IMG/VR virus record: IMGVR_UViG_3300045988_114759
DNA: 64,000 nt
Source of the DNA: a virus
Strand: one strand, 5' to 3'
In this document: one piece after another, positions 2,753-55,888 of the stretch
Numbering within the stretch: the first letter of the stretch is position 1
Layout: each line of letters starts with the position of its first letter
The notes under the pieces: generated by a model
Databases searched by the model: none
Seen by the model: only the letters and a program-made list of their open reading frames with translations
Told to the model about the DNA's origin: nothing
Made by a program: the position numbers and the translations under genes

Positions 2753-5236
2753 ATGGCTATAAGTTACGACAAAAAAATCATGGAGTGCGTTCTTCGTTCA
2801 GTTATGTCCGAAGGTAATGTCGCACAAGGAAAGGCTATTAAGTCTATTTGTAAGTCACCAAAACCGCTGTTTATAACCGGTAAAGGAGGAAGTGGAAAAG
2901 CACAGCCTTTGTATGCTAAAATTTTAACGCCAGATGGTTTTAAGAATATGGGGGATATAAAGGTTGGTGATAAAGTTATGGGCGCAGATGGTAAACAACA
3001 GACTGTATTGGGTGTGTATCCACAGGGAATTAGACCTGTATATAAGGTAACTATGAATGATGGTTATTTTACATATTGCGATGAAGAGCATTTGTGGTCA
3101 TATAGATTATCCAGTCATTATGGTAAAACTCCATTTTCGAGATGCAGTACACTAAAAGAAATTATAAGTACAGGTATCAGGAAGAATGTTAAAATAAAAA
3201 ATGGTGAAAAACAGCCGTTAAGATATGAAATTCCAGTGTGCCGACCTATAGAATATGAAGAAAAGAAATTTTCTATACATCCGTATGTATTGGGAGTTTT
3301 TATAGGTGATGGGAGTTTAAATGGTAATATGGCTATTTTTTCTTGTTCTGATTCTGATGTAGAAATAAGAAATAGAGTAGAGTCATTTCTTGGAGAAGAT
3401 TTTCTATTGAGTAAAAAAAAGGAACATCCAGCCATCACATGTCCTCAATACAGTGTGATTCAAAAAAATCATACAAAAGGTGGTGGGTTTATAAATAGGA
3501 TAAAGGATTTAGGACTAAATGTTACGTCTGGGTATAAATTTATACCAGAAGAATATAAACTTGGCAGTATCGATCAGAGAATGCATTTGTTAAATGGTTT
3601 AATGGACACCGATGGAACATGCTCGAAAGAAAGAAATAGATTGACGTATTCTACTACAAGCAAGAGATTGGCTGAAGACATTGTTGATCTTGTACAGTCG
3701 TTAGGTGGAATAGCTAAGATAAATACGCTTTTTAGACCTGATAAGAAATACGTGTATGAATATACCGTAAGAATAAAAATGTACGATAATGCATTTACAT
3801 TAAAAAGAAAAAAAGAAAGATATGTTCCTAATCCGGCAAGAGTTTCAAGGTATATAGAAAGCGTGGAAAAGGTAGATGATTCTGAATGCGTATGTATAAA
3901 AGTATCAAATAAAGACGAGTTGTATATAACAGATAATTATATTGTAACTCATAATACTACTTTCCTTAAGCGTATTATACCGGCATTAAAAAATGCGGTT
4001 GTTGTAGCTCCTACAGGTGTTGCTGCTGTTAATGCAGGTGGTCAAACCATTCATTCATTTTTTAGAATAGGAATGCAGCCGTATATACCTGAAATACGAA
4101 AAGGCGCGTTTATGGATAATTGCGAATATAAATTCAACGGAGGTTCGGAAAAGATTTTACAGAATATAAAGTATCTTATCATAGACGAGATTTCTATGGT
4201 TCGCCCTGATCTTCTTGACAACGTAGCTGATATACTTCGTCATGCAAGAGGAGACAAGGACCCGTTTGGCGGCGTGAAACTTATTATGGTAGGTGATTTA
4301 TTTCAACTTCCGCCAGTAATTAAGGAGGATTTTTTTAGAGAAATATACGATACATCTTACTTCTTTAGCTCCAAGTCTCTAATGGCTTCTGGTATGGAAA
4401 TGGTTTCTTTTGAAAAAATATACCGTCAGAAAGATGAGAAGTTTATTAGTGTCCTTAATAAGGTGCGTGAAGGGCAGATGGATGATGATGTATTTGATAC
4501 AATAAACAGCAGATGTATTCAGTCTGATAATAATCAAGGATATGTTGAGATTGTAACTACCAACTCAAAAGCTACGGCTATTAACGAAATGAGAATATCA
4601 TCGTTACCAGGCTCTTTAAGAAAATTAGAAGCTGTTATAAACGGTGATTATCCTAAAGATGCTCCGGTTGAAAAAACTCTTTTCTTGAAAGAAGGATCAA
4701 GAGTTATGATAACAAGAAACGGAGGAGAGTACTTCAATGGCTCTCTTGGTACTGTATTGTCTATAAAAAGGGGGGAGATTGAAGTAGTCCTTGATAAACC
4801 GAAAGATGATGAGCATACTAAGGTTGTTATAACACCATGTTCGTTTGAGAAAGTAAAATACGTAAGAAACGGATATAAGATAGAATCTGAAGTAGTAGGA
4901 GCTATTATTCAGTATCCTATAAAAATAGGTTATTCTATCACGATTCATAAAGCCCAAGGCCTGACATTGGATGCGGCTATGATGGACGTATCTAATTCTT
5001 TTGAAACAGGACAGCTATATACGGCTCTTTCAAGAGTAAAGTCTCTTGATGGATTATATCTTCGTCAACCTATTCCTAAGACGGTAAAAACCAGCGATCA
5101 GGTGGTGATAAACTTCTATAAAAGGACTCTTGGTAATGGAGGTATTGTGAAACCGGTTCCAATGGAAGAGCTTGAAAAGTCAATGATTAATTTGTCAACC
5201 GGATCTGAAATAGATTTTGCAGAGTTTAATTTATAA
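2753..5236 (+). CDS. Pif1/RecD/Dda-like SF1 DNA helicase precursor, interrupted by an intein
   Basis: The Walker A motif GKGGSGK|T is split by a 352-aa insertion. After the insertion come the motifs APTGVAAVNAGGQTIHSFF, LIIDEISMV (Walker B), MVGDLFQLPPV and SITIHKAQGLTLD, which are typical of Pif1/RecD (AAA_30 + UvrD_C_2). The spliced product would be about 475 aa. Confidence 0.8.
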   Translation: MAISYDKKIMECVLRSVMSEGNVAQGKAIKSICKSPKPLFITGKGGSGKAQPLYAKILTPDGFKNMGDIKVGDKVMGADGKQQTVLGVYPQGIRPVYKVTMNDGYFTYCDEEHLWSYRLSSHYGKTPFSRCSTLKEIISTGIRKNVKIKNGEKQPLRYEIPVCRPIEYEEKKFSIHPYVLGVFIGDGSLNGNMAIFSCSDSDVEIRNRVESFLGEDFLLSKKKEHPAITCPQYSVIQKNHTKGGGFINRIKDLGLNVTSGYKFIPEEYKLGSIDQRMHLLNGLMDTDGTCSKERNRLTYSTTSKRLAEDIVDLVQSLGGIAKINTLFRPDKKYVYEYTVRIKMYDNAFTLKRKKERYVPNPARVSRYIESVEKVDDSECVCIKVSNKDELYITDNYIVTHNTTFLKRIIPALKNAVVVAPTGVAAVNAGGQTIHSFFRIGMQPYIPEIRKGAFMDNCEYKFNGGSEKILQNIKYLIIDEISMVRPDLLDNVADILRHARGDKDPFGGVKLIMVGDLFQLPPVIKEDFFREIYDTSYFFSSKSLMASGMEMVSFEKIYRQKDEKFISVLNKVREGQMDDDVFDTINSRCIQSDNNQGYVEIVTTNSKATAINEMRISSLPGSLRKLEAVINGDYPKDAPVEKTLFLKEGSRVMITRNGGEYFNGSLGTVLSIKRGEIEVVLDKPKDDEHTKVVITPCSFEKVKYVRNGYKIESEVVGAIIQYPIKIGYSITIHKAQGLTLDAAMMDVSNSFETGQLYTALSRVKSLDGLYLRQPIPKTVKTSDQVVINFYKRTLGNGGIVKPVPMEELEKSMINLSTGSEIDFAEFNL
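2900..3955 (+). mobile_element. intein carrying a LAGLIDADG homing endonuclease, inserted in the helicase P-loop
   Basis: The insertion starts with Ala right after GKGGSGK and ends with ...IVTHN, followed by Thr (+1). Removing it restores the GSGKT Walker A motif. It contains two LAGLIDADG blocks (LGVFIGDGSL and LLNGLMDTDGTC). A Hint-like N-terminal region reads KILTPDGFKNMGDIKVGDKV. Confidence 0.75.
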
Positions 5237-5247
5237 AAAATATAGTT

Positions 5248-5559
5248 ATGAAATTTGGAGAAGCTTTAGAAGAAGTAAAAAAAGGTGCGTTGATTGCACG
5301 TGCCGGATGGAATGGTAAAGGTATGTTCGTATTCCAGCGCCCGGAAGATTGGTTGTCCACTGATATGATAGTTAATAAAGTAAAGTCATTGCCGGATTCG
5401 TTAAAAAAATACGTAAACGATTATTATGACGTAACTGAAACCAACATGATTAAATTTTGCGCTTATCTGTGCATGAAAGATGCTAACGATAATATCGTAA
5501 ACGGATGGTTAGCTTCGCAATCAGATATGTTGGCTGATGATTGGATGGTTGTTGGTTAA
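5248..5559 (+). CDS. hypothetical protein
   Basis: 103-aa ORF starting 12 nt after the helicase stop. No motif. Confidence 0.4.
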   Translation: MKFGEALEEVKKGALIARAGWNGKGMFVFQRPEDWLSTDMIVNKVKSLPDSLKKYVNDYYDVTETNMIKFCAYLCMKDANDNIVNGWLASQSDMLADDWMVVG

Positions 5560-12162: not shown

Positions 12163-12310
12163 AAAAGTAAAAGACACTAAAAAGAAGAAGAAAAAGAAGT
12201 AGGTATTTTAATCCTTTTTATATTTTAAGGTTTGCCATATTTTAGGTTAGTACTTAACTTTGCGTTGAGAGAGAGTTTTTTAATAAAGTGAGTATCTAAA
12301 ATTAAGTCCT

Positions 12311-12336
12311 ATGAGTAGGTATCTGAAAAGATACCT
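12311..12336. promoter_or_regulatory. perfect 11-bp-arm palindrome (agtaggtatct gaaa agatacctact) upstream of the HNH gene
   Basis: Seen directly in the sequence. Located 25 nt before the 12362 start codon. Could be an operator or terminator. Confidence 0.4.
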
Positions 12337-12361
12337 ACTTGTTCTATAATTAATCAATAAA

Positions 12362-12868
12362 ATGAGTAGATTAGTAGAAATTAAAGGATATGATGGAGAT
12401 TATTTTATTTCTGATTGCGGAGATGTTTTTTCTTTTAAATCAGGAAAGAGTAAGATCTTAAAGAAAAGGATAAATCAAGGAGGATACTATTATGTTAATT
12501 TATATAAAAATGGAAAGTATAAATCATTTTGTATTCATAGATTGGTCGGTATTTACTTTGTTGATAAATATGATGAAAATTTAAATGTTTTAAATCATAT
12601 AGATGGAAACAAATTAAATAATAACTATGATAATCTTGAATGGTGTACACTTTCTTATAATACTAAGGAAGCCATAAGATTGGGGCTGTTTAAAATAAGA
12701 AAGGGTGAAGAGTCAAATTTATATAGTGGAAAGATAAATAATGATGTGGCTAAAACGATAAGGGATATGAGAAATAATCGCAATATGTCTTATGGAGAAA
12801 TAGCCGATATTTTTGATTTATCACGCGCTACCATAATTAATATTTGTAAAAATAGGATTTATACATAA
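12362..12868 (+). CDS. HNH homing endonuclease (free-standing)
   Basis: The HRLV...NHIDGNKLNN.YDNLEW.TLSYN pattern (HNH with conserved His/Asn) fits. The C-terminal helix-turn-helix-like tail and the position next to the tRNA cluster are typical of phage HNH endonucleases. Confidence 0.7.
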   Translation: MSRLVEIKGYDGDYFISDCGDVFSFKSGKSKILKKRINQGGYYYVNLYKNGKYKSFCIHRLVGIYFVDKYDENLNVLNHIDGNKLNNNYDNLEWCTLSYNTKEAIRLGLFKIRKGEESNLYSGKINNDVAKTIRDMRNNRNMSYGEIADIFDLSRATIINICKNRIYT

Positions 12869-12875
12869 ATTTTAT

Positions 12876-12955
12876 CCGGTAGTATCCCCTCAAGCTTATA
12901 CCTTGTAGAAAGGGTAGTTGGTTACACGTGGGTTCAAATCCCTCCTACCGGACCA
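12876..12955 (+). tRNA. tRNA-like gene with encoded CCA; anticodon unresolved
   Basis: Acceptor stem ccggtag/ctaccgg. T-arm gtggg-TTCAAAT-ccctc. Discriminator A plus CCA. 45 nt lie between acceptor and T-arm, 4 more than a class I tRNA. The D-arm region lacks the usual GG and no clean anticodon stem was found. Confidence 0.45.
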
Positions 12956-12956
12956 C

Positions 12957-13027
12957 TGTCCAATGGTGTAGTGGTAGCACAACAGATTTTGGTTCTGTTA
13001 GCGGAGGTTCGAATCCTCCTTGGATAA
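12957..13027 (+). tRNA. tRNA-Gln (anticodon TTG)
   Basis: Acceptor tgtccaa/ttggata, with the U1-A72 pair typical of bacterial tRNA-Gln. Anticodon stem acaga/tctgt with loop ttTTGgt. T-arm ggagg-TTCGAAT-cctcc. Confidence 0.7.
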
Positions 13028-13097
13028 CAATAAGTTTTTGTGTAAAGTGTTAATTATCTCAGTGTTTGCGGTGTGCGAACATAGCAAACATGAATCT

Positions 13098-13169
13098 GGC
13101 CCATTAGTTTAACGGATAAAACCTTTGAGTCCTAATCAAAAGTTGCCTGTTCGATTCAGGCATGGGCTA
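13098..13169 (+). tRNA. tRNA-Arg (anticodon CCT)
   Basis: Acceptor ggcccat/atgggct. D-arm gttt-aacggat-aaac. Anticodon stem tttga/tcaaa with loop gtCCTaa. Variable loop agtt. T-arm gcctg-TTCGATT-caggc. Confidence 0.75.
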
Positions 13170-13172
13170 CAT

Positions 13173-13244
13173 GGCTTGTTGGATGAGTGGTTTAGTCAGG
13201 GGTCCGCAAAACCTCGTATGGCGGTTCGATTCCGCTACAAGCCT
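13173..13244 (+). tRNA. tRNA with GCA anticodon (Cys-like) and unusual C at position 33
   Basis: Acceptor ggcttgt/acaagcc. D-loop contains GG. Anticodon stem ggggt/acctc with loop ccGCAaa. Variable loop gtat. T-arm ggcgg-TTCGATT-ccgct. C33 in place of the near-universal U33 makes the identity uncertain. Confidence 0.55.
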
Positions 13245-13261
13245 CTAAAAAAAGTAAGACA

Positions 13262-15068: not shown

Positions 15069-15311
15069 AACATAAATAATTTTGTAGTTAATTAATATCT
15101 TGACAAAGATAGATTTATTATACGAAAATCATATTATTCATGTTTATAAATTAAAAGTTATCTTTATCCCAAAATAAGACAATCATGAGAAGAAGATTTT
15201 TTAACAAAATAGGGGGGCGGTCTCCCTACTGATAATTTTATAGTTTTTGATAAATCTGTATCAGATCCTGCTAATATAACAATAAGCGAAGACTTCGATT
15301 TTTTATATAGG

Positions 15312-16298
15312 TTGATTACCAGTGGCTTCTATAGAGTTCTTTGCAAGAGCGCTATGGGAGGAGGAGAGGTTTTTGTATGTAGGTTGAAGGAAGACAACAG
15401 CAATTTGTATCTTGATGGCAGTCCGGCTGTTCTTACCGGAGAAGAAGGTGATGTGATGGTCGTTTTCTTAGAATTTTGGTATAAGTGGTATAAGGTGGAT
15501 GATAATAGATTTCTTTATCATTTTGCTGATCATGATATCGACGGTACTTACATTCATGTCCCGCAATCTCTTGTTGGAGCATATAAAGGATATGTGTCTT
15601 CAAATAGACTATATAGCTGGAGTGATGTTACTCCTACGACGAACGTATCATTATCTGATTTCAGAAGTTACGCAAAAGCACGTGGTACCGGTTTCCAGGT
15701 GATAGATTTTCAACAACATTGTGTGATTGCTATGATGTTGTATGCTAAGTACAAAACACGTAACCTGCAAGGCGTATTAGGACCCGGTGGCGCAACCGGT
15801 GGTGCGGCTACAACAACGGGAAGCAGCAACGCAACCGGTGGTGCGGATACCGAAAACGAAAGTTCAAAGTATGTTTGCGGCTTAGGACTTGAAGGTGTAT
15901 TTGGCGGTATCTGTGAATGGGTTGAAGGTGTAGAAATAAACAACCGAGTTTGGAAAATCACCGACCCGGACGGTTCGACTCGCAATGTGAACGCCGAGAC
16001 TTTCAGCGGTTGGATAATAAATATAGCAGCCGAAAATGGTCCGTTTTTTGATGTGGTGCCGACACAAGTTGGCGGTAGCGATTCCACGCATTATTCAGAT
16101 TACTATAGTCGGACATCAGACAGCTCCCTTGTTTTGGCGCGCTCCGGTTACCGCTCGTGTCCGACTGGCGGCGTGGCGTATACGGATGCGGCTTACGATG
16201 CGTCGGACATGGATTCGAGCTACGGTTCTCGTCTTGCTTTCCACGGAACCATATCCGAATTGGCTCCAAGGCAATTCAAAAGATTACCCGTATTATAA
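15312..16298 (+). CDS. glycine-rich putative virion/tail-fibre-like protein
   Basis: 328 aa with a G/T/A-rich stretch (GPGGATGGAATTTGSSNATGG), then a Ser/Tyr/Asp-rich C-terminus. No enzyme motif. Confidence 0.45.
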   Translation: MITSGFYRVLCKSAMGGGEVFVCRLKEDNSNLYLDGSPAVLTGEEGDVMVVFLEFWYKWYKVDDNRFLYHFADHDIDGTYIHVPQSLVGAYKGYVSSNRLYSWSDVTPTTNVSLSDFRSYAKARGTGFQVIDFQQHCVIAMMLYAKYKTRNLQGVLGPGGATGGAATTTGSSNATGGADTENESSKYVCGLGLEGVFGGICEWVEGVEINNRVWKITDPDGSTRNVNAETFSGWIINIAAENGPFFDVVPTQVGGSDSTHYSDYYSRTSDSSLVLARSGYRSCPTGGVAYTDAAYDASDMDSSYGSRLAFHGTISELAPRQFKRLPVL

Positions 16299-16378
16299 TA
16301 TCATATTTTAATTGTTTTTTAAATTGTATTGTTAATATTATTACGTATATTTGCGATACAATTTAAAAACATTATATC

Positions 16379-27453: not shown

Positions 27454-27782
27454 AAACGATAAAAGTAGACAAAGTGATATTATATTACATGGATCGGGTA
27501 GACCCTGACGGGAACTTATACCGGTTCTATGTGTATAAAGGAATGGCATCTGAAATAGAATACTTTTGCACTGAAGAGGCAGGTAATATGACCATACCAA
27601 TCGGAGAAGGAGAGTATGTCAAGATCGTACCAAAAGAAATAGAGAAAATACCGGTAAGGGGATATAGGAAGCTTGCTGGAATATGGAATTGTGAAACATG
27701 TAACGGGAAGGGATGGCATAGGCTTTTTAATTATTTCAAATACAAGCCAGACATATGTTATATTAAAAAACATAGGGCGTGA
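27450..27782 (+). CDS. hypothetical protein
   Basis: 110 aa with an ATGA overlap. Confidence 0.4.
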   Translation: MKTIKVDKVILYYMDRVDPDGNLYRFYVYKGMASEIEYFCTEEAGNMTIPIGEGEYVKIVPKEIEKIPVRGYRKLAGIWNCETCNGKGWHRLFNYFKYKPDICYIKKHRA

Positions 27783-27962
27783 TAAAAATGGAAACACAAG
27801 ATATGAAGTATCATTATTTAATGCCACTATGAATGTGACAAGGTATTTTAATCTGTGGAGAATGAAGCCAGGGATGCATGCTATGATAACAAACGAGTAC
27901 GGAGTCTTGGATATTATAAAAGAAAAATTCGATAACATAAATATAGTGGAATATAGTGGAAT

Positions 27963-28160
27963 ATGGATATAAATAAAAAGAGTAGAAAAGATTATGAGAA
28001 GTTTCTTAACTCAATATCTCCAGATAGAGACGATGAGGCATGGATCATTGGAGGAAAGAACAGGTATTGCGGTAGAGAGAATTATGGCACTATGATCAAA
28101 AGGTATGATCCTATTGGTTTTAATGTAGGATACAGGGAGTGGGTAGAACAGCCAGAGTAA
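27963..28160 (+). CDS. hypothetical protein
   Basis: 65 aa. Confidence 0.3.
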   Translation: MDINKKSRKDYEKFLNSISPDRDDEAWIIGGKNRYCGRENYGTMIKRYDPIGFNVGYREWVEQPE

Positions 28161-28405
28161 GGCGGCGCCCGTCCTGCCATGAGGCCAGCCTAGCTGTTCG
28201 TGGCCAGGGCCATACATTAATCAGATAGTGAACGGCGAAAACAATACATAAAATGGGAAACGAATTAAAACTTAACAGCGCAGAAGAAGCAGAAGTAATT
28301 TTAAGAAATGGTGGCTGATTATAAAGGTCGCATATATGAATATTACGAGTTCAAGAGAGAGGTCATTGATAAGATAAGATAATTATATACCTAAAATAAT
28401 AGTTT

Positions 28406-28720
28406 ATGACATTCAAAGAATTTATGAAAGAAGTGGGCTATAACCTACTGACTACCTTTTGGGAAGATTTTAGTATAGCCGACAAGTATGGTATAGTAGG
28501 TGTCAAAGATACCTACAGACGTGCGTTTAGCGAATGGAAAGACGATTATAAGTTCTTCACGGAATTAACGCTCGTATTGAATCATAAAATCTGGCAGCAT
28601 TATGAAAGCAATCGTGAACTGGCTGCATTGTATGACCGGTTGTGGCGAGAAGCTGACGAGTATGCCATGAGCAACTTTAAGGGAGAAGAACTTGATTATT
28701 ATTACAGAATAACTGATTAG
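28406..28720 (+). CDS. hypothetical protein
   Basis: 104 aa. Confidence 0.4.
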   Translation: MTFKEFMKEVGYNLLTTFWEDFSIADKYGIVGVKDTYRRAFSEWKDDYKFFTELTLVLNHKIWQHYESNRELAALYDRLWREADEYAMSNFKGEELDYYYRITD

Positions 28721-28911
28721 CTATGTTATACCCGTTTTCATTGACGCTTGACTTATATATACAAGCCGAATCGTTTGAAGAAGCCAAGAAATTAGCAGAA
28801 GCATACGTACAAGATGCTTCGTTAGATACAACTGACTATCCGGAAATAGTACAGGATGTGTTGGAAGTGGCAGAGTATGGAATAATTGATGTAGAATAAT
28901 AAATTAATATT

Positions 28912-29187
28912 ATGACAGCAGCAGAAAAATTGCGTATGGAAATAGCGCAAGAAGCACCATTTAGTAAGGACGAATTTATTAGTAAAATCTCTCGTCTAAT
29001 TAAGGCGTATGGATATGCAAGTTTTATTTGCGACAAGCATATTCGAGAAACCGATGTATCGCCTAACGGTAACACGATTCGTATGGTACATGAACAGATA
29101 GCAATTGATTTTGCTCGTTATGAGGGTTTCTTAGTATCATACAAACATAACAGTTATGGTGTTAGATATATAGTATTCACTCTTTGA
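28912..29187 (+). CDS. hypothetical protein
   Basis: 91 aa. The 3' end abuts the third copy of the dispersed repeat. Confidence 0.4.
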   Translation: MTAAEKLRMEIAQEAPFSKDEFISKISRLIKAYGYASFICDKHIRETDVSPNGNTIRMVHEQIAIDFARYEGFLVSYKHNSYGVRYIVFTL

Positions 29188-29373
29188 CATACTCCCATAG
29201 CTAAAGCAAACGGGATTAAAAGAATGTAGCAGGGAAGAGGCATTTGACATCATTCAAGGGTGGGCTAAAGAGTTTGCAGAGGAATATGGGAATTGTGATT
29301 TTGATGGATCATACTATGATGAAATAGATGCATTTATCGAAGAAAAATTAAGAACTATTTAAAATATAAAGAC

Positions 29374-30183
29374 ATGGAAGACGATCTTATTACAACAAAA
29401 GAAGTAGGCGATTATCGAATTAAAGTGTATTATTGCCGTGATTCAGAATGTCCTATAACTAATTGGGGTTTGTTTGGGTCATTCTTTTTTGAATACTCAG
29501 ATACACATCGATTACATGATGAATGCAATTGGAAAACTTTCTTCTACGATAACAAGCATGATCTTAGAGATGTTATTGATGCTATTGTAATGAAGCATAT
29601 AGAACAGAAAGACATTGTAAAATATTTAAAGAAAGGGGAAGCGAATGGGATCTCATTCACATACAACAGAGGTGGCAATGTATGGGAGTTGAAACATAAG
29701 ACAAGTCTATATATAGGTCAAGAGTTTTCACCAGGTGATTTGAAGGACTTTGATTGCAGAGGAGAATTAATAGAGGATCTGGATGATGAAGACCTGTTAG
29801 ATATCATATCCAAATATGGAAAAGATGTGGTAGCTATAGAGTGGTCGACAAGGGGTTATAATCAAGGTGATTATATAAAAGGGATAGCATACGTTACAAA
29901 AGAAAAATATGATAATGAAGTCTGCAACAAAGAAGGAGACTGGAAAGAAGATTGTGCCAAGATTATAGATAATGAGGTAAAGTCCATAGGTATGTGGATG
30001 TGGGGAGATGTAAAAGGGTACGTTCTTGAAAAGAAGGTAGCATTTACCAAGAAATACAAAGACGAATCAAGAGAGGATGAAGATTGCGAAGAATGGGAAG
30101 AGGTTGATTCTTGCTGGGGATGTTACGAGGAGACAGATGAATTGATAAAGGAAGTCATGATAGAGAATGGCTTAGAAGAATAG
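29374..30183 (+). CDS. acidic hypothetical protein (269 aa)
   Basis: Asp/Glu-rich, with Cys pairs (CRDSECP...CEEWEEVDSCWGCYE). Confidence 0.45.
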   Translation: MEDDLITTKEVGDYRIKVYYCRDSECPITNWGLFGSFFFEYSDTHRLHDECNWKTFFYDNKHDLRDVIDAIVMKHIEQKDIVKYLKKGEANGISFTYNRGGNVWELKHKTSLYIGQEFSPGDLKDFDCRGELIEDLDDEDLLDIISKYGKDVVAIEWSTRGYNQGDYIKGIAYVTKEKYDNEVCNKEGDWKEDCAKIIDNEVKSIGMWMWGDVKGYVLEKKVAFTKKYKDESREDEDCEEWEEVDSCWGCYEETDELIKEVMIENGLEE

Positions 30184-30251
30184 GTTGTGTATGCTGATGC
30201 CATGAGTGATTTTATCCAGAAATTATATAACTACATTTAATAACATATCTT

Positions 30252-34036: not shown

Positions 34037-34489
34037 GTGACAGAGAAAGGACGAAATAGAGCAGAAATCGTATATGAAGACAATTCATCAATTTATCCGT
34101 TATTGGTTGTAATTCATTCGATTTCTGTATCAGCAGATTGGTTTTCTGCTACAGGAAAAGCAATTAGCAGCGAAAATAGCCTCCTTCTTGAAGTCCCGGA
34201 ATATACTACATTTAAAGATGGAGATGTGTTAAGCAACAAAGATGGAAGTTATATTTTTATTTTAAATATACATGGGAAATATTTAACATCTTTGTATGCG
34301 AGTCTTGCAGCGGGAACAAGTCTTAATATATCGGATAATTTGGCTGCACACGAAAACCACATAGAATGTTATAGACTTGCAACAGATTCGGAAAAACAGA
34401 AGATGATTAAAGCGTTAAAGAAAAGCGAAAATCCTAAAGCAAAAGAATATCTGAAACGCTTCTTCGGGATTAAAGAAGAGCCGAAATAA
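34037..34489 (+). CDS. hypothetical protein
   Basis: 150 aa. Confidence 0.4.
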   Translation: MTEKGRNRAEIVYEDNSSIYPLLVVIHSISVSADWFSATGKAISSENSLLLEVPEYTTFKDGDVLSNKDGSYIFILNIHGKYLTSLYASLAAGTSLNISDNLAAHENHIECYRLATDSEKQKMIKALKKSENPKAKEYLKRFFGIKEEPK

Positions 34490-54133: not shown

Positions 54134-54414
54134 ACGGTGAAAGCTGGGTGCTTAAGCCTATGGTGGAAAACGTGCCAAGAGGATGGAATGGCCTTGGATG
54201 TGGTGGAAGAAAAATGTATGTCAATATCGAAGGGAAAGGCGTTGTTGTATCAAATAACTGCTGGTGCCAAGGTGATGTTTCGGACGCATTTAAGGAACTG
54301 ATGCCTGATAATGCTACTTGGGCTACGAAGGAGGAATTTGACAAAGCTCCTGTAGTAGGATATATTATAGAAGGTATTGGTTTAGTTTTCACAGATAGGG
54401 TACATTTTTTATAA
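54058..54414 (+). CDS. hypothetical protein
   Basis: 118 aa, overlapping the previous ORF in another frame. One of the two may be spurious. Confidence 0.3.
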   Translation: MVLRMLFFWQNMYDKHKDDPGWVRIDGESWVLKPMVENVPRGWNGLGCGGRKMYVNIEGKGVVVSNNCWCQGDVSDAFKELMPDNATWATKEEFDKAPVVGYIIEGIGLVFTDRVHFL

Positions 54415-54470
54415 ATCAATTAAGATAATTATATATCTCAATTAATTATTCACTTTTAAAAATTATAGTT

Positions 54471-54635
54471 ATGAAAACAAAAGAAGAAAAACAAAAGAAA
54501 TTTTTGACAGAATTTGAAATCAACGGGCGAAAATACGCTGGTGAAATATGGGCTACTTCTTGGGATGAGGCAGAAGATTTTGTTAAACAAAAAGCTGCAA
54601 CAGAAGAAGTAGTGGGAGTTATTCCAAATGATTAA
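54471..54635 (+). CDS. small protein, paralog of 5630-5830 (54 aa; below the ORF-track size cutoff)
   Basis: Translation MKTKEEKQKKFLTEFEINGRKYAGEIWATSWDEAEDFVKQKAATEEVVGVIPND. Residues 1-10 are identical to the 5.6-kb copy and the following ~35 are conserved, with the same upstream sequence. Confidence 0.5.
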   Translation: MKTKEEKQKKFLTEFEINGRKYAGEIWATSWDEAEDFVKQKAATEEVVGVIPND

Positions 54636-54696
54636 GGCAGTTATATATACAATTCTGCATATAGATGATAGTATAGATTCTATATACAGAATTGTT

Positions 54697-55140
54697 TTAA
54701 TTGTCGAACGTAACTGTCTCCGATGTTACCACATATTCACCTATACTTCCATACGCTTTAGAATATAATTCAAGTTTTATATGAGCGGAATAGGTGGCAT
54801 ATAAAGTGCCTTGACCCAACCTGGTTATAATAGGTCTGACTATTGATGTTAGGGTCAAATTTTGAAAAGATGTAGGAGAAGGCTCTGGTTCAATATTAGT
54901 TTCAACAAGTTCGCAACTCCATGATGTATCTGAGCCGGTTTCGTAGATCTTATCTACAGGATCTCCTATTATCGTATCTGGGTACTCATGTTGCTCACTG
55001 GTGTAATTCATTACAATAGGATTATCATTGTTTACATTGTATTTTTTACCAGGAGCAGTATATAGTATTTCACGATATGTTACATATTTCTTTTCTTGTT
55101 CTCTCACTGTAAACTGGTCAGGCAAATAAAGACGTATCAA
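54697..55140 (-). CDS. hypothetical (putative virion/tail) protein
   Basis: 147 aa. Last gene of the minus-strand block, downstream of the giant protein. Confidence 0.4.
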   Translation of the reverse strand: MIRLYLPDQFTVREQEKKYVTYREILYTAPGKKYNVNNDNPIVMNYTSEQHEYPDTIIGDPVDKIYETGSDTSWSCELVETNIEPEPSPTSFQNLTLTSIVRPIITRLGQGTLYATYSAHIKLELYSKAYGSIGEYVVTSETVTFDN

Positions 55141-55426
55141 AAAACCTAAAGAAGGAGATTCTACTCTACCTATAATAAGTTTAATGTCATCCTTCTCTAC
55201 AAGCTCTTTCGTAGATTCTGTTTGTTCGCTGATAGTCTCTTTTGTATTAGATGGGACTCCTCCTTGGATACTTATAGAACCCAGACGTTGTTTTATAGAA
55301 AGAAAGGTAAATACACCACTTTGTGGAACGGTACCGACTATTTCATCATCAATGATTACCCCCCCCCTATACAGTTGCTAACTATTTGATATTCATATAT
55401 TTTTAATGATGTTTCAAATCTTCTTC

Positions 55427-55888
55427 TCATATTCCTTTTAAGTAAGTATCAGGTGCAACAAAATCACTTATTGTCTTTATTATATGTATAGTATCTATAA
55501 AATATTTATCAACATCCATAGAAAGTTGAGGACGAAGATCTGAATCGTTTGTCTTATCTGTTATATAGAAATAGTACAGAACATCCTCCAGATAAAATGT
55601 AAGATAAATATCCTCTGTGACATTTCCATTATTGAAATAGCAATTGATGCCAGACCCAGATGGAGTCATATGGCAATCTATACTTTGGGTATCTCCCATA
55701 GTACACACGTAATTGGAACTGGCAATATCAACCGCATATTTTCCAACATTTATACCACCACTTTCCCTCGATCTCGTGGTAAGTATATGAACGGCATTTT
55801 TCCAAGTGGAAAGAGGTGCAGATATACTAACGGCGAAAACGGGAATTATCGTCTGAAATAAATCATATGACAAAAACCTTCTTCTCAT
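55427..55888 (-). CDS. hypothetical (putative virion/tail) protein
   Basis: 153 aa, immediately downstream of the giant ORF on the - strand. Confidence 0.4.
   Translation of the reverse strand: MRRRFLSYDLFQTIIPVFAVSISAPLSTWKNAVHILTTRSRESGGINVGKYAVDIASSNYVCTMGDTQSIDCHMTPSGSGINCYFNNGNVTEDIYLTFYLEDVLYYFYITDKTNDSDLRPQLSMDVDKYFIDTIHIIKTISDFVAPDTYLKGI

Follow-up and report, generated by a model that had tools for sequence, protein, structure and literature searches.

A predicted mobile class 3 intein in the P-loop of a PIF1/RecD-like helicase from a human-gut phage

The present work concerns a stretch of viral DNA of 64,000 nucleotides—the IMG/VR record IMGVR_UViG_3300045988_114759, the whole of which is referred to here as the window—and, within it, an 827-aa open reading frame (ORF) at 2753..5236, which appears to encode the precursor of a PIF1/RecD-like helicase of superfamily 1B (SF1B) interrupted by an intein. 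With a probability of roughly 0.9, the interrupting segment is a mobile class 3 intein with a nested LAGLIDADG endonuclease, inserted in the Walker A motif of the helicase, its splicing, endonuclease activity and homing being predicted from the sequence. It represents a further example of an already described class 3 type and involves no new mechanism. All the features mentioned below lie on the + strand, and the positions are those of the window. A preliminary description of the same DNA had proposed an intein with a LAGLIDADG endonuclease in a Pif1/RecD-like helicase, a proposal now borne out by the Hint blocks and by the matches in Pfam, the Protein Data Bank (PDB) and Foldseek.

The interrupted helicase and its intein-free counterpart

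The insert consists of exactly 352 codons (residues 50-401 of the ORF; 2900..3955) and divides the Walker A motif between Lys49 and Thr402 (GKGGSGK|T). The N-extein (aa 1-49; 2753..2899) ends with ...FITGKGGSGK—in a longer form, ...PLFITGKGGSGK—Lys49 being the -1 residue; the insert begins with AQPLYAKILTPDG and ends with ...YIVTHN (longer form, ...LYITDNYIVTHN); and the C-extein (aa 402-827 and the stop codon; 3956..5236), which contains the helicase core, starts with TTFLKRII (longer form, TTFLKRIIPALK). Its first residue, Thr402 (3956-3958), is both the Thr of the Walker A motif and the predicted +1 splice nucleophile. The frame of 827 codons is fully open in the window.

When the insert is deleted in silico, a 475-aa protein with the canonical Walker A motif GKGGSGKT is obtained, as the preliminary description had anticipated, and the E-value of the Pfam PIF1 match improves from 1.5e-25 to 1.3e-30. 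In the spliced sequence this match is continuous through the P-loop, whereas in the unspliced ORF it begins only after the insert. The spliced sequence scores 107 bits with PF05970 (PIF1) against a curated cut-off of 25.9, the host protein also giving matches to AAA_30, AAA_19 and, weakly, RecD2. Concerning the NCBIfam models, the exteins yield weak matches of the RecD2/RecD/TraA type, and the insert matches the intein-containing parts of the RFC, GyrA, DnaB and RNA polymerase A'' models. The host protein is predicted to be a PIF1/RecD-like SF1B helicase.

The intein-free state of the same gene is present in a sequenced phage. A megablast of the ORF against the GenBank phages found a single record, the phage csAssE-Sib (OR575929.1; 151 kb, human gut), matching in two pieces with 97.9% identity at 57% query coverage. 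The csAssE-Sib gene at the matching place encodes 475 aa and is annotated as 'ATP dependent DNA helicase', the neighbourhood common to both consisting of a DUF2829 protein, thymidylate synthase, a RuvC-like resolvase, a sliding clamp, SSB and dUTPase. Spliced in silico, the window ORF gives a product identical to this helicase in 474 of 475 residues, and the N-extein agrees with the intein-free gene in 145 of 147 nucleotides. Between ...GGAAGTGGAAAA and ACTACTTTCC... the window has exactly 1056 extra bases, i.e. the intein, missing from csAssE-Sib, the empty site of which reads ...GGAAAA|ACAACG... (written as ...GGAAGTGGAAAA|ACAACGTTCCTT..., or, with longer context, ...GGTAAAGGAGGAAGTGGAAAA|ACAACGTTCCTTAAGCGT...). 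Both this comparison and the translation of the ORF place the insert where the preliminary description had it, exact to the base. The window is collinear with csAssE-Sib throughout, the identity being 85-96% for the most part and closer to 77-82% in a few stretches, and its source is, on the strength of these sequence matches, a human-gut phage predicted to be closely related to csAssE-Sib. A literature search on phage csAssE-Sib found no paper.

With regard to the insert itself, its DNA had no close match by megablast among the annotated GenBank phages. Its guanine-plus-cytosine content (0.328, compared with 0.365-0.395 in the exteins) differs by a small amount that is consistent with a foreign origin. 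The insert matches a profile of 112 homologues at E 4.5e-120, which is far beyond chance; when the six-frame translation of the window was searched with the intein-family profile, the single match was the insert, and no further copies, e.g. in other P-loop proteins, were found.

The reading as an ordinary domain insertion, kept in the mature helicase with no splicing, is consequently left with almost no probability, since the Walker A motif is broken between its Lys and Thr, the nearest homologues are without the insert, and the insert has all the Hint blocks together with a PI-SceI-like predicted fold. The preliminary description had named an insertion shared, without Hint blocks, by homologous helicases as the outcome that would speak against an intein; the closest homologues were found to be without the insert and the Hint blocks to be present, and an insertion shared by homologous helicases is excluded because the csAssE-Sib allele is empty and has the same flanks.

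The HINT domain and the assignment to class 3

The HINT domain spans intein residues ~1-104 and 316-352, the endonuclease being nested inside. Its N-terminal half (residues 1-104; 2900..3211, with approximate boundaries taken from the structural model) comprises blocks A and B, aligns to the gp41-1, MchDnaB1 and MsmDnaB1 inteins and is rich in beta-strands in the model, while the C-terminal part (3845..3955) comprises blocks F and G. Blocks A, B, F and G, for which the preliminary description had suggested a search, are thus all present, the block B His, the terminal His-Asn and the +1 Thr (counted together with Ser) being conserved in 112-113 of the 113 sequences of the family described below.

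In the phmmer comparison with the PDB chains, the best match was the gp41-1 intein with an engineered WCT motif (6riz, 2e-13), followed by the wild-type gp41-1 and the class 3 inteins MchDnaB1 (6rix, 6riy) and MsmDnaB1 (6bs8), the middle part of the insert matching PI-SceI. An AlphaFold2 model of the insert, built with 49 homologues, has a mean predicted local distance difference test (pLDDT) score of 95.2 and a predicted template modelling (pTM) score of 0.93. Foldseek against the PDB places PI-SceI on top (E 2e-19, TMq 0.72), the next matches being the Tli/Pho VMA inteins, the class 3 mini-inteins MchDnaB1 and MsmDnaB1, I-DmoI and many other inteins, including those of Prp8, RecA and DnaE. 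As modelled, the insert has the HINT fold.

Class 3 inteins have been defined by a position 1 without Ser, Thr or Cys, by the co-varying triplet Trp B:12/Cys F:4/Thr G:5 (WCT) and by Thr or Ser at +1, whereas class 2, i.e. the KlbA-like inteins, is without the WCT triplet and has Cys at +1, Ala1 being common to both classes (Tori et al. 2010; PMC2807308). Numbered from its own first residue, the window intein shows the signature Ala1 (codon GCA; 2900-2902), His64 (B:10; 3089-3091) and Trp66 (B:12, the 'W' of WCT; 3095-3097) in block B (TYCDEEHLWSYRLS; 3071..3112), Cys332 (F:4, the predicted initiating nucleophile; 3893-3895), Thr350-His351-Asn352 (G:5-7; 3947-3955) and Thr at +1. The Ala at position 1 and the terminal His-Asn had been read correctly in the preliminary description.

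A search with the intein in a collection of 5.8 billion proteins gave 259 hits at E<=1e-10, from which the 112 spanning the whole intein were aligned together with the query (n=113). In this family alignment, Ala occupies position 1 in 93 of the 113 sequences; His B:10, Cys F:4 and His G:6 are each present in 113/113; Trp B:12, Thr G:5 and Asn G:7 in 112/113 each; and the +1 residue is Thr in 103 and Ser in 9. The WCT triplet also aligns with that of MchDnaB1.

The family is related to the class 3 prototype from phage Bethlehem. The family profile matches the Bethlehem intein over profile positions 4-350 (E 2e-56), and a pairwise BLASTP of the window intein gives 24% identity (E 5e-26), its residues being aligned to His65/Trp67, Cys320 and Thr339-His340-Asn341 of Bethlehem. 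It should be noted that this intein, named 'MP-Be DnaB', was sought in the annotated DnaB-like gene gp62 and is absent there; it was recovered from gp11 (residues 141-481) with Gln-1/Pro1, as described by Tori et al. (PMC2807308). The 903-aa gp11, whose gene lies immediately upstream of that for the portal, is apparently the large terminase, and Kelley et al. (PMC5050341) cite the paper of Tori et al. under the TerL1 inteins.

Since every one of the class 3 sequence features is found, the insert is assigned, at the sequence level, to class 3. The alternative that it is a KlbA-like class 2 intein, in which the +1 residue would attack the N-terminal junction directly with no block F nucleophile, draws on Ala1 being common to the two classes, and the preliminary description, writing of a 'class-2/3-type', had left both open. 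This alternative has only a very slight chance of being right: class 2 has neither the triplet nor a +1 residue other than Cys, whereas here W66, C332 and T350 are near-invariant in the family, the +1 residue is Thr, and the family is homologous to the Bethlehem prototype. The class 3 half of the earlier wording therefore stands, whereas the class 2 half falls, class 2 being excluded as far as the sequence can tell by the WCT triplet and the Thr at +1.

As a class 3 intein, the insert would be removed as follows. Translation would give the 827-aa precursor, which would presumably be inactive as an ATPase, the ATP-binding loop being interrupted between Lys49 and Thr402; a precursor that is ATPase-dead until splicing has been argued for the P-loop inteins in RadA and DnaB (PMC6195587). 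By the class 3 route (PMC2807308), the thiol of Cys332, aided by His64 and Trp66, would attack the Lys49-Ala50 bond to form a thioester-branched intermediate; the N-extein would then be transferred to the hydroxyl of Thr402 (+1); cyclisation of Asn352 would release the intein; and an O-to-N acyl shift would create the Lys49-Thr402 peptide bond, yielding the 475-aa helicase with GKGGSGKT. Concerning the control of splicing, the window intein has the neighbouring cysteines C330-x-C332 and a near-invariant Cys60. For MsmDnaB1 (DnaBi1), a class 3 intein in the P-loop of DnaB, both splicing and its redox control have been shown experimentally (PMC6195587); by analogy, splicing in the window intein may be conditional, e.g. 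redox-sensitive via Cys332.

The endonuclease, the alleles and mobility

The LAGLIDADG homing endonuclease domain occupies intein residues ~105-315 (3212..3844) and matches the Pfam families LAGLIDADG_3 (2.7e-11) and Hom_end (6.7e-06), the match to Hom_end_hint being below its cut-off. The two LAGLIDADG blocks noticed in the preliminary description are located at 3284..3319 (motif 1, YVLGVFIGDGSL) and 3584..3619 (motif 2, HLLNGLMDTDGT). In the alignment of the domain to PI-SceI residues 208-365, Asp137 (3308-3310) corresponds to PI-SceI Asp218 and Asp238 (3611-3613) to Asp326, Asp218 and Asp326 being the catalytic residues of PI-SceI. Because both Asp residues align in this way and each is conserved in at least 90% of the intein family, the endonuclease is plausibly active; the conserved Gly/Lys/Ser family positions of the domain are intact as well. 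The released intein, with an estimated size of ~40 kDa, would act as a homing endonuclease that cuts the P-loop-coding DNA of intein-free alleles in co-infection, after which the intein would be copied into the empty allele by repair.

The metagenome sequences, clustered at 90% identity, contain both states of the gene. Of their member sequences, 3864 belong to the intein-free helicase cluster (P0121) and 923 to the intein-containing one (P0122), whose 827-aa architecture is identical to that of the window ORF; the intein, although without a close GenBank phage match, is thus common in metagenomes. Intein-positive alleles were compared from four sources, i.e. the window, L007, L008 and L003. 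Their exteins differ by 1-9 nt; the intact inteins (window, L007, L008) differ at no more than 2 of 1056 nt, and the intein of L003, which is frameshifted, differs from that of the window by two substitutions and two indels. The intein-positive alleles form one tight clade, the intein-free alleles being more diverse, and presence or absence of the intein is polymorphic among alleles 98-99% identical. Directly after the site, two synonymous changes go with the intein: ACT ACT is found in all four intein-positive alleles and ACA ACG in four close intein-free ones, a linkage that fits co-conversion or target-site immunity, and common descent equally. On the whole, the population data fit a mobile element. 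As to selection, synonymous sites are saturated between the window allele and its 69% ortholog (dN/dS), leaving only the amino-acid identity per domain informative, and the close intein-positive alleles, whose inteins differ by 2 nt, offer too few differences for a selection test.

The intein-free clade of 88% identity (L012-L015), with a site of the type ...GGAACAGGAAAA|AGTTTTTTC..., was considered for its diverged P-loop DNA as a possible footprint of endonuclease resistance or intein loss. This was rejected: the clade diverges over the entire length of the gene, the 60-nt bins having similar counts, and no special signal at the P-loop can be claimed.

In the ortholog with 69% extein identity (P0135; L009 134-2605), the same GK|T site is occupied by a related class 3 intein that retains all its splicing residues and shares with the window intein 54% identity in HINT-N, 41% in the endonuclease and 78% in HINT-C. 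Both its LAGLIDADG Asp residues are replaced (GSG and SLG, in IGSGD and DSLGG), which suggests that its endonuclease is degenerate, a state in keeping with the decay phase of homing. That the window intein likewise splices with an endonuclease no longer active, being inherited vertically without homing, is a possible though less likely reading. The loss of both Asp residues in P0135 means that such decay occurs in the lineage, and one tight clade of all the sampled intein-positive alleles is what vertical descent would give; in the window, however, both catalytic Asp residues and the conserved Gly/Lys/Ser positions are intact, and an intein diversity of 2/1056 nt beside more diverse intein-free alleles fits recent spread equally well.

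Frameshifted copies of the window allele occur in two independent contigs of ~155 kb from the European Nucleotide Archive (L003 3143-5629 and L004 1-1763). Owing to a -1 deletion in an A-run (window 3413) and a +4 GAAA duplication (after window 3624), 211 nt of the endonuclease domain are read in a wrong frame that contains stops, LAGLIDADG motif 2 being lost in this way, and the gene is called as a 234-aa ORF (N-extein and N-terminal intein half) and a 542-aa ORF (C-terminal intein half and C-extein), each keeping one intact HINT half. This allele may be dead or, more speculatively, may represent a nascent split intein. If the halves were to reassociate and trans-splice, it would be a class 3 intein on the way to becoming a natural split intein, with the window allele as its immediate cis-splicing ancestor; we regard this as improbable.

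The same two contigs bear on whether the window intein itself could be decayed and splicing-dead, the helicase gene then being effectively a pseudogene tolerated thanks to other phage helicases. They indicate that loss of the helicase may be tolerated, and the annotation of the collinear csAssE-Sib does hold other helicases (a DnaB-like one, a second ATP-dependent helicase and a primase/helicase). Such a state is nevertheless quite improbable, for the frame in the window is open and all the splicing and endonuclease catalytic residues are intact, intein-containing sequences are overwhelmingly of the intact 827-aa form (923 cluster members, the broken forms having 1-2), and P0135 has kept its splicing residues despite its decayed endonuclease motifs, a pattern expected if splicing is selected.

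Four points should be set against the assignment as a mobile, splicing class 3 intein. The frameshifted copies weaken the argument that the helicase, and hence splicing, is essential. With the sampled intein-positive alleles forming one clade, the ACT ACT linkage may reflect common descent and not co-conversion. Block B:7 is Asp61, common to just 8 of the 113 relatives; this is a minor deviation, position B:7 having been dispensable for N-terminal cleavage in the Bethlehem intein (PMC2807308). Finally, the WCT triplet grafted onto a class 1 intein gave no productive splicing (PMC7664689), so the triplet alone is insufficient as proof of activity; in the present case it occurs in a natural homologue of an active family.

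The helicase appears, from the sequences retrieved, to have at least two intein sites in the population. Two relatives, P0134 (97% extein identity) and P0137 (76%), are without the P-loop intein and have a different one after SITIHK, in a C-terminal helicase motif, with Cys1 and LAGLIDADG motifs (CIDGDSPIF...LIGYIIGDG...); both sequences end at contig ends, the C-terminal intein junction lying outside. This second site corresponds to window ~4951 (codons 733/734, ...SITIHK|AQGLTLD) and is empty in the window. A further metagenomic protein, P0128 (629 aa), in which the N-terminus of a type II/IV secretion ATPase is joined to the helicase exactly at the P-loop (GGGTGSGK|TTFLK), was rejected as a real variant, being probably an assembly chimera formed via shared P-loop-coding sequence.

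Insertion site, genomic surroundings and comparison with known systems

Within the intein family, 95-98 of the 113 members are preceded by Gly-Lys, i.e. they are located at GK|T/S of a Walker A motif, and their host proteins cover PhoH, AAA_24, AAA, IstB-like, DnaA-like, RecA, Zot, large terminase and PIF1. A few members are positioned outside a P-loop, among them P0054, in a family A DNA polymerase, with Ser1 and Ser+1 (...IVYGT|SQPL...THN|SEYG), and P0010, in a PhoH-like protein, inserted after ...FMRGC. They show occasional jumps outside Walker A, and a class 1/class 3 borderline case is possible among them.

The insertion site is not unusual, because the Walker A Lys|Thr is the 'classic' P-loop intein insertion (Kelley et al. 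2016; PMC5050341) and because MsmDnaB1/MchDnaB1 are at the equivalent place in DnaB. By tblastn the family was found in 863 GenBank phage records, including phages of Mycobacterium, Salmonella, Vibrio and Klebsiella, and helicase, terminase or primase-helicase is the annotation of many host genes listed among these matches. Against this background, the rarity claimed in the preliminary description holds in part. A PIF1 host was seen in 1 of 50 intein relatives checked, and a P-loop intein in just two clusters among the 120 best extein homologues, so that a PIF1-like helicase host is uncommon among the retrieved relatives, a modest novelty; neither the site nor the occurrence of such inteins in phages and in helicase-annotated genes is rare. 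No relevant paper came up when the literature was searched for inteins in PIF1 helicases, and neither the PIF1/RecD-like host family nor the csAssE-Sib-like phage group is covered in the intein literature found.

The observation adds a well-defined class 3 intein, probably still mobile, to the PIF1/RecD-like SF1B helicases and to the large gut phages related to csAssE-Sib. Since public gut metagenomes contain, side by side, nearly identical alleles without the intein, with it, with a broken endonuclease and with a degenerate one, the locus offers a convenient natural system for the homing cycle in phages, i.e. invasion, fixation, endonuclease decay and loss. For annotation, the 827-aa ORF should be described as a helicase precursor with an intein, and not as a fused helicase/endonuclease. 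In protein engineering, a class 3 intein that is compact and full-length and has a natural GK|T junction could also be of minor use. The understanding of protein splicing is left unchanged.

With regard to the surroundings of the gene, the intein is one among several window-specific stretches in comparison with csAssE-Sib. The segments 12280-12927, 15115-16299, 27637-30236 and 54400-55874, as well as a junction near 34488, have no csAssE-Sib counterpart; among their ORFs are one of 328 aa at 15312-16298 and several small ones at 27.6-30.2 kb, and ~8 kb of csAssE-Sib is absent from the window at ~34488. All this looks like ordinary accessory-gene mosaicism. The other window-specific stretches, inspected by eye for homing-endonuclease-like ORFs with no profile-library scan made, contained nothing intein-like. 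Three tRNA genes (Gln-TTG, Arg-CCT and Cys-GCA) are located at 12957-13245; a fourth, tRNA-Met, adjoins these in csAssE-Sib and was not found in the window by ARAGORN. The 103-aa ORF that follows the helicase immediately downstream (5248-5559) has a PF11195 (Tad2-like) hit in the precomputed annotation of related contigs, its csAssE-Sib counterpart being annotated as a DUF2829 protein. Should PF11195 be the family of the anti-Thoeris sponge Tad2, this ORF could be an anti-defence gene.

Among the known systems, the Bethlehem intein resembles that of the window in being full-size with a nested LAGLIDADG endonuclease (341 vs 352 aa) and in combining a non-nucleophilic residue 1, the block F Cys, the C-terminal Thr-His-Asn and Thr+1, the block B His-x-Trp being at 65/67 in Bethlehem and at 64/66 in the window. 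The two differ in their junctions—Pro1/Gln-1 in Bethlehem, Ala1/Lys-1 in the window—and in the insertion, which in Bethlehem follows ...VSQDQ and not the Walker A Lys; moreover, the host of the Bethlehem phage belongs to Actinobacteria, whereas the window comes from a human-gut phage.

The intein 1 of DnaB from M. smegmatis and M. chimaera (DnaBi1, MchDnaB1; 6bs8, 6rix) is, like that of the window, a class 3 intein with the WCT triplet in a P-loop, the N-extein of MchDnaB1 having been modelled as SVGK (PMC7664689). MsmDnaBi1, however, uses the P-loop Ser as the +1 nucleophile instead of Thr; both are mini-inteins without the endonuclease present in the window intein; and the host is the bacterial hexameric replicative helicase DnaB, in contrast to a phage SF1B PIF1-like helicase. 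The phage P-loop inteins of the 'TerL1-a' type (PMC5050341) share the Lys|Thr site, the phage location and the homing endonucleases, but their host protein is the terminase, and both the phage and host groups differ, too. PI-SceI, the yeast VMA1 intein, has the same two-domain architecture of HINT and LAGLIDADG and is the best structural match to the window intein, although it belongs to class 1 (Cys1, Cys+1), is larger (454 aa) and is eukaryotic.

The closest inteins by sequence, at 51-55% identity over the whole intein, are that of gp36 from the Bacteroides phage BS-TP3 and the metagenomic P0001 and P0003, all of them matching the junctions of the window, G-x-G-K|AQPLY...YIVTHN|TT. The gp36 intein is the closest annotated relative (52.7% identity; GQPGMGK|AQPLY...YIVTHN|TT), its host protein being a different P-loop ATPase—AAA_24-like and annotated as terminase/DnaB-like—and, as the two hosts differ, the same intein lineage thus occupies the P-loops of unrelated genes.

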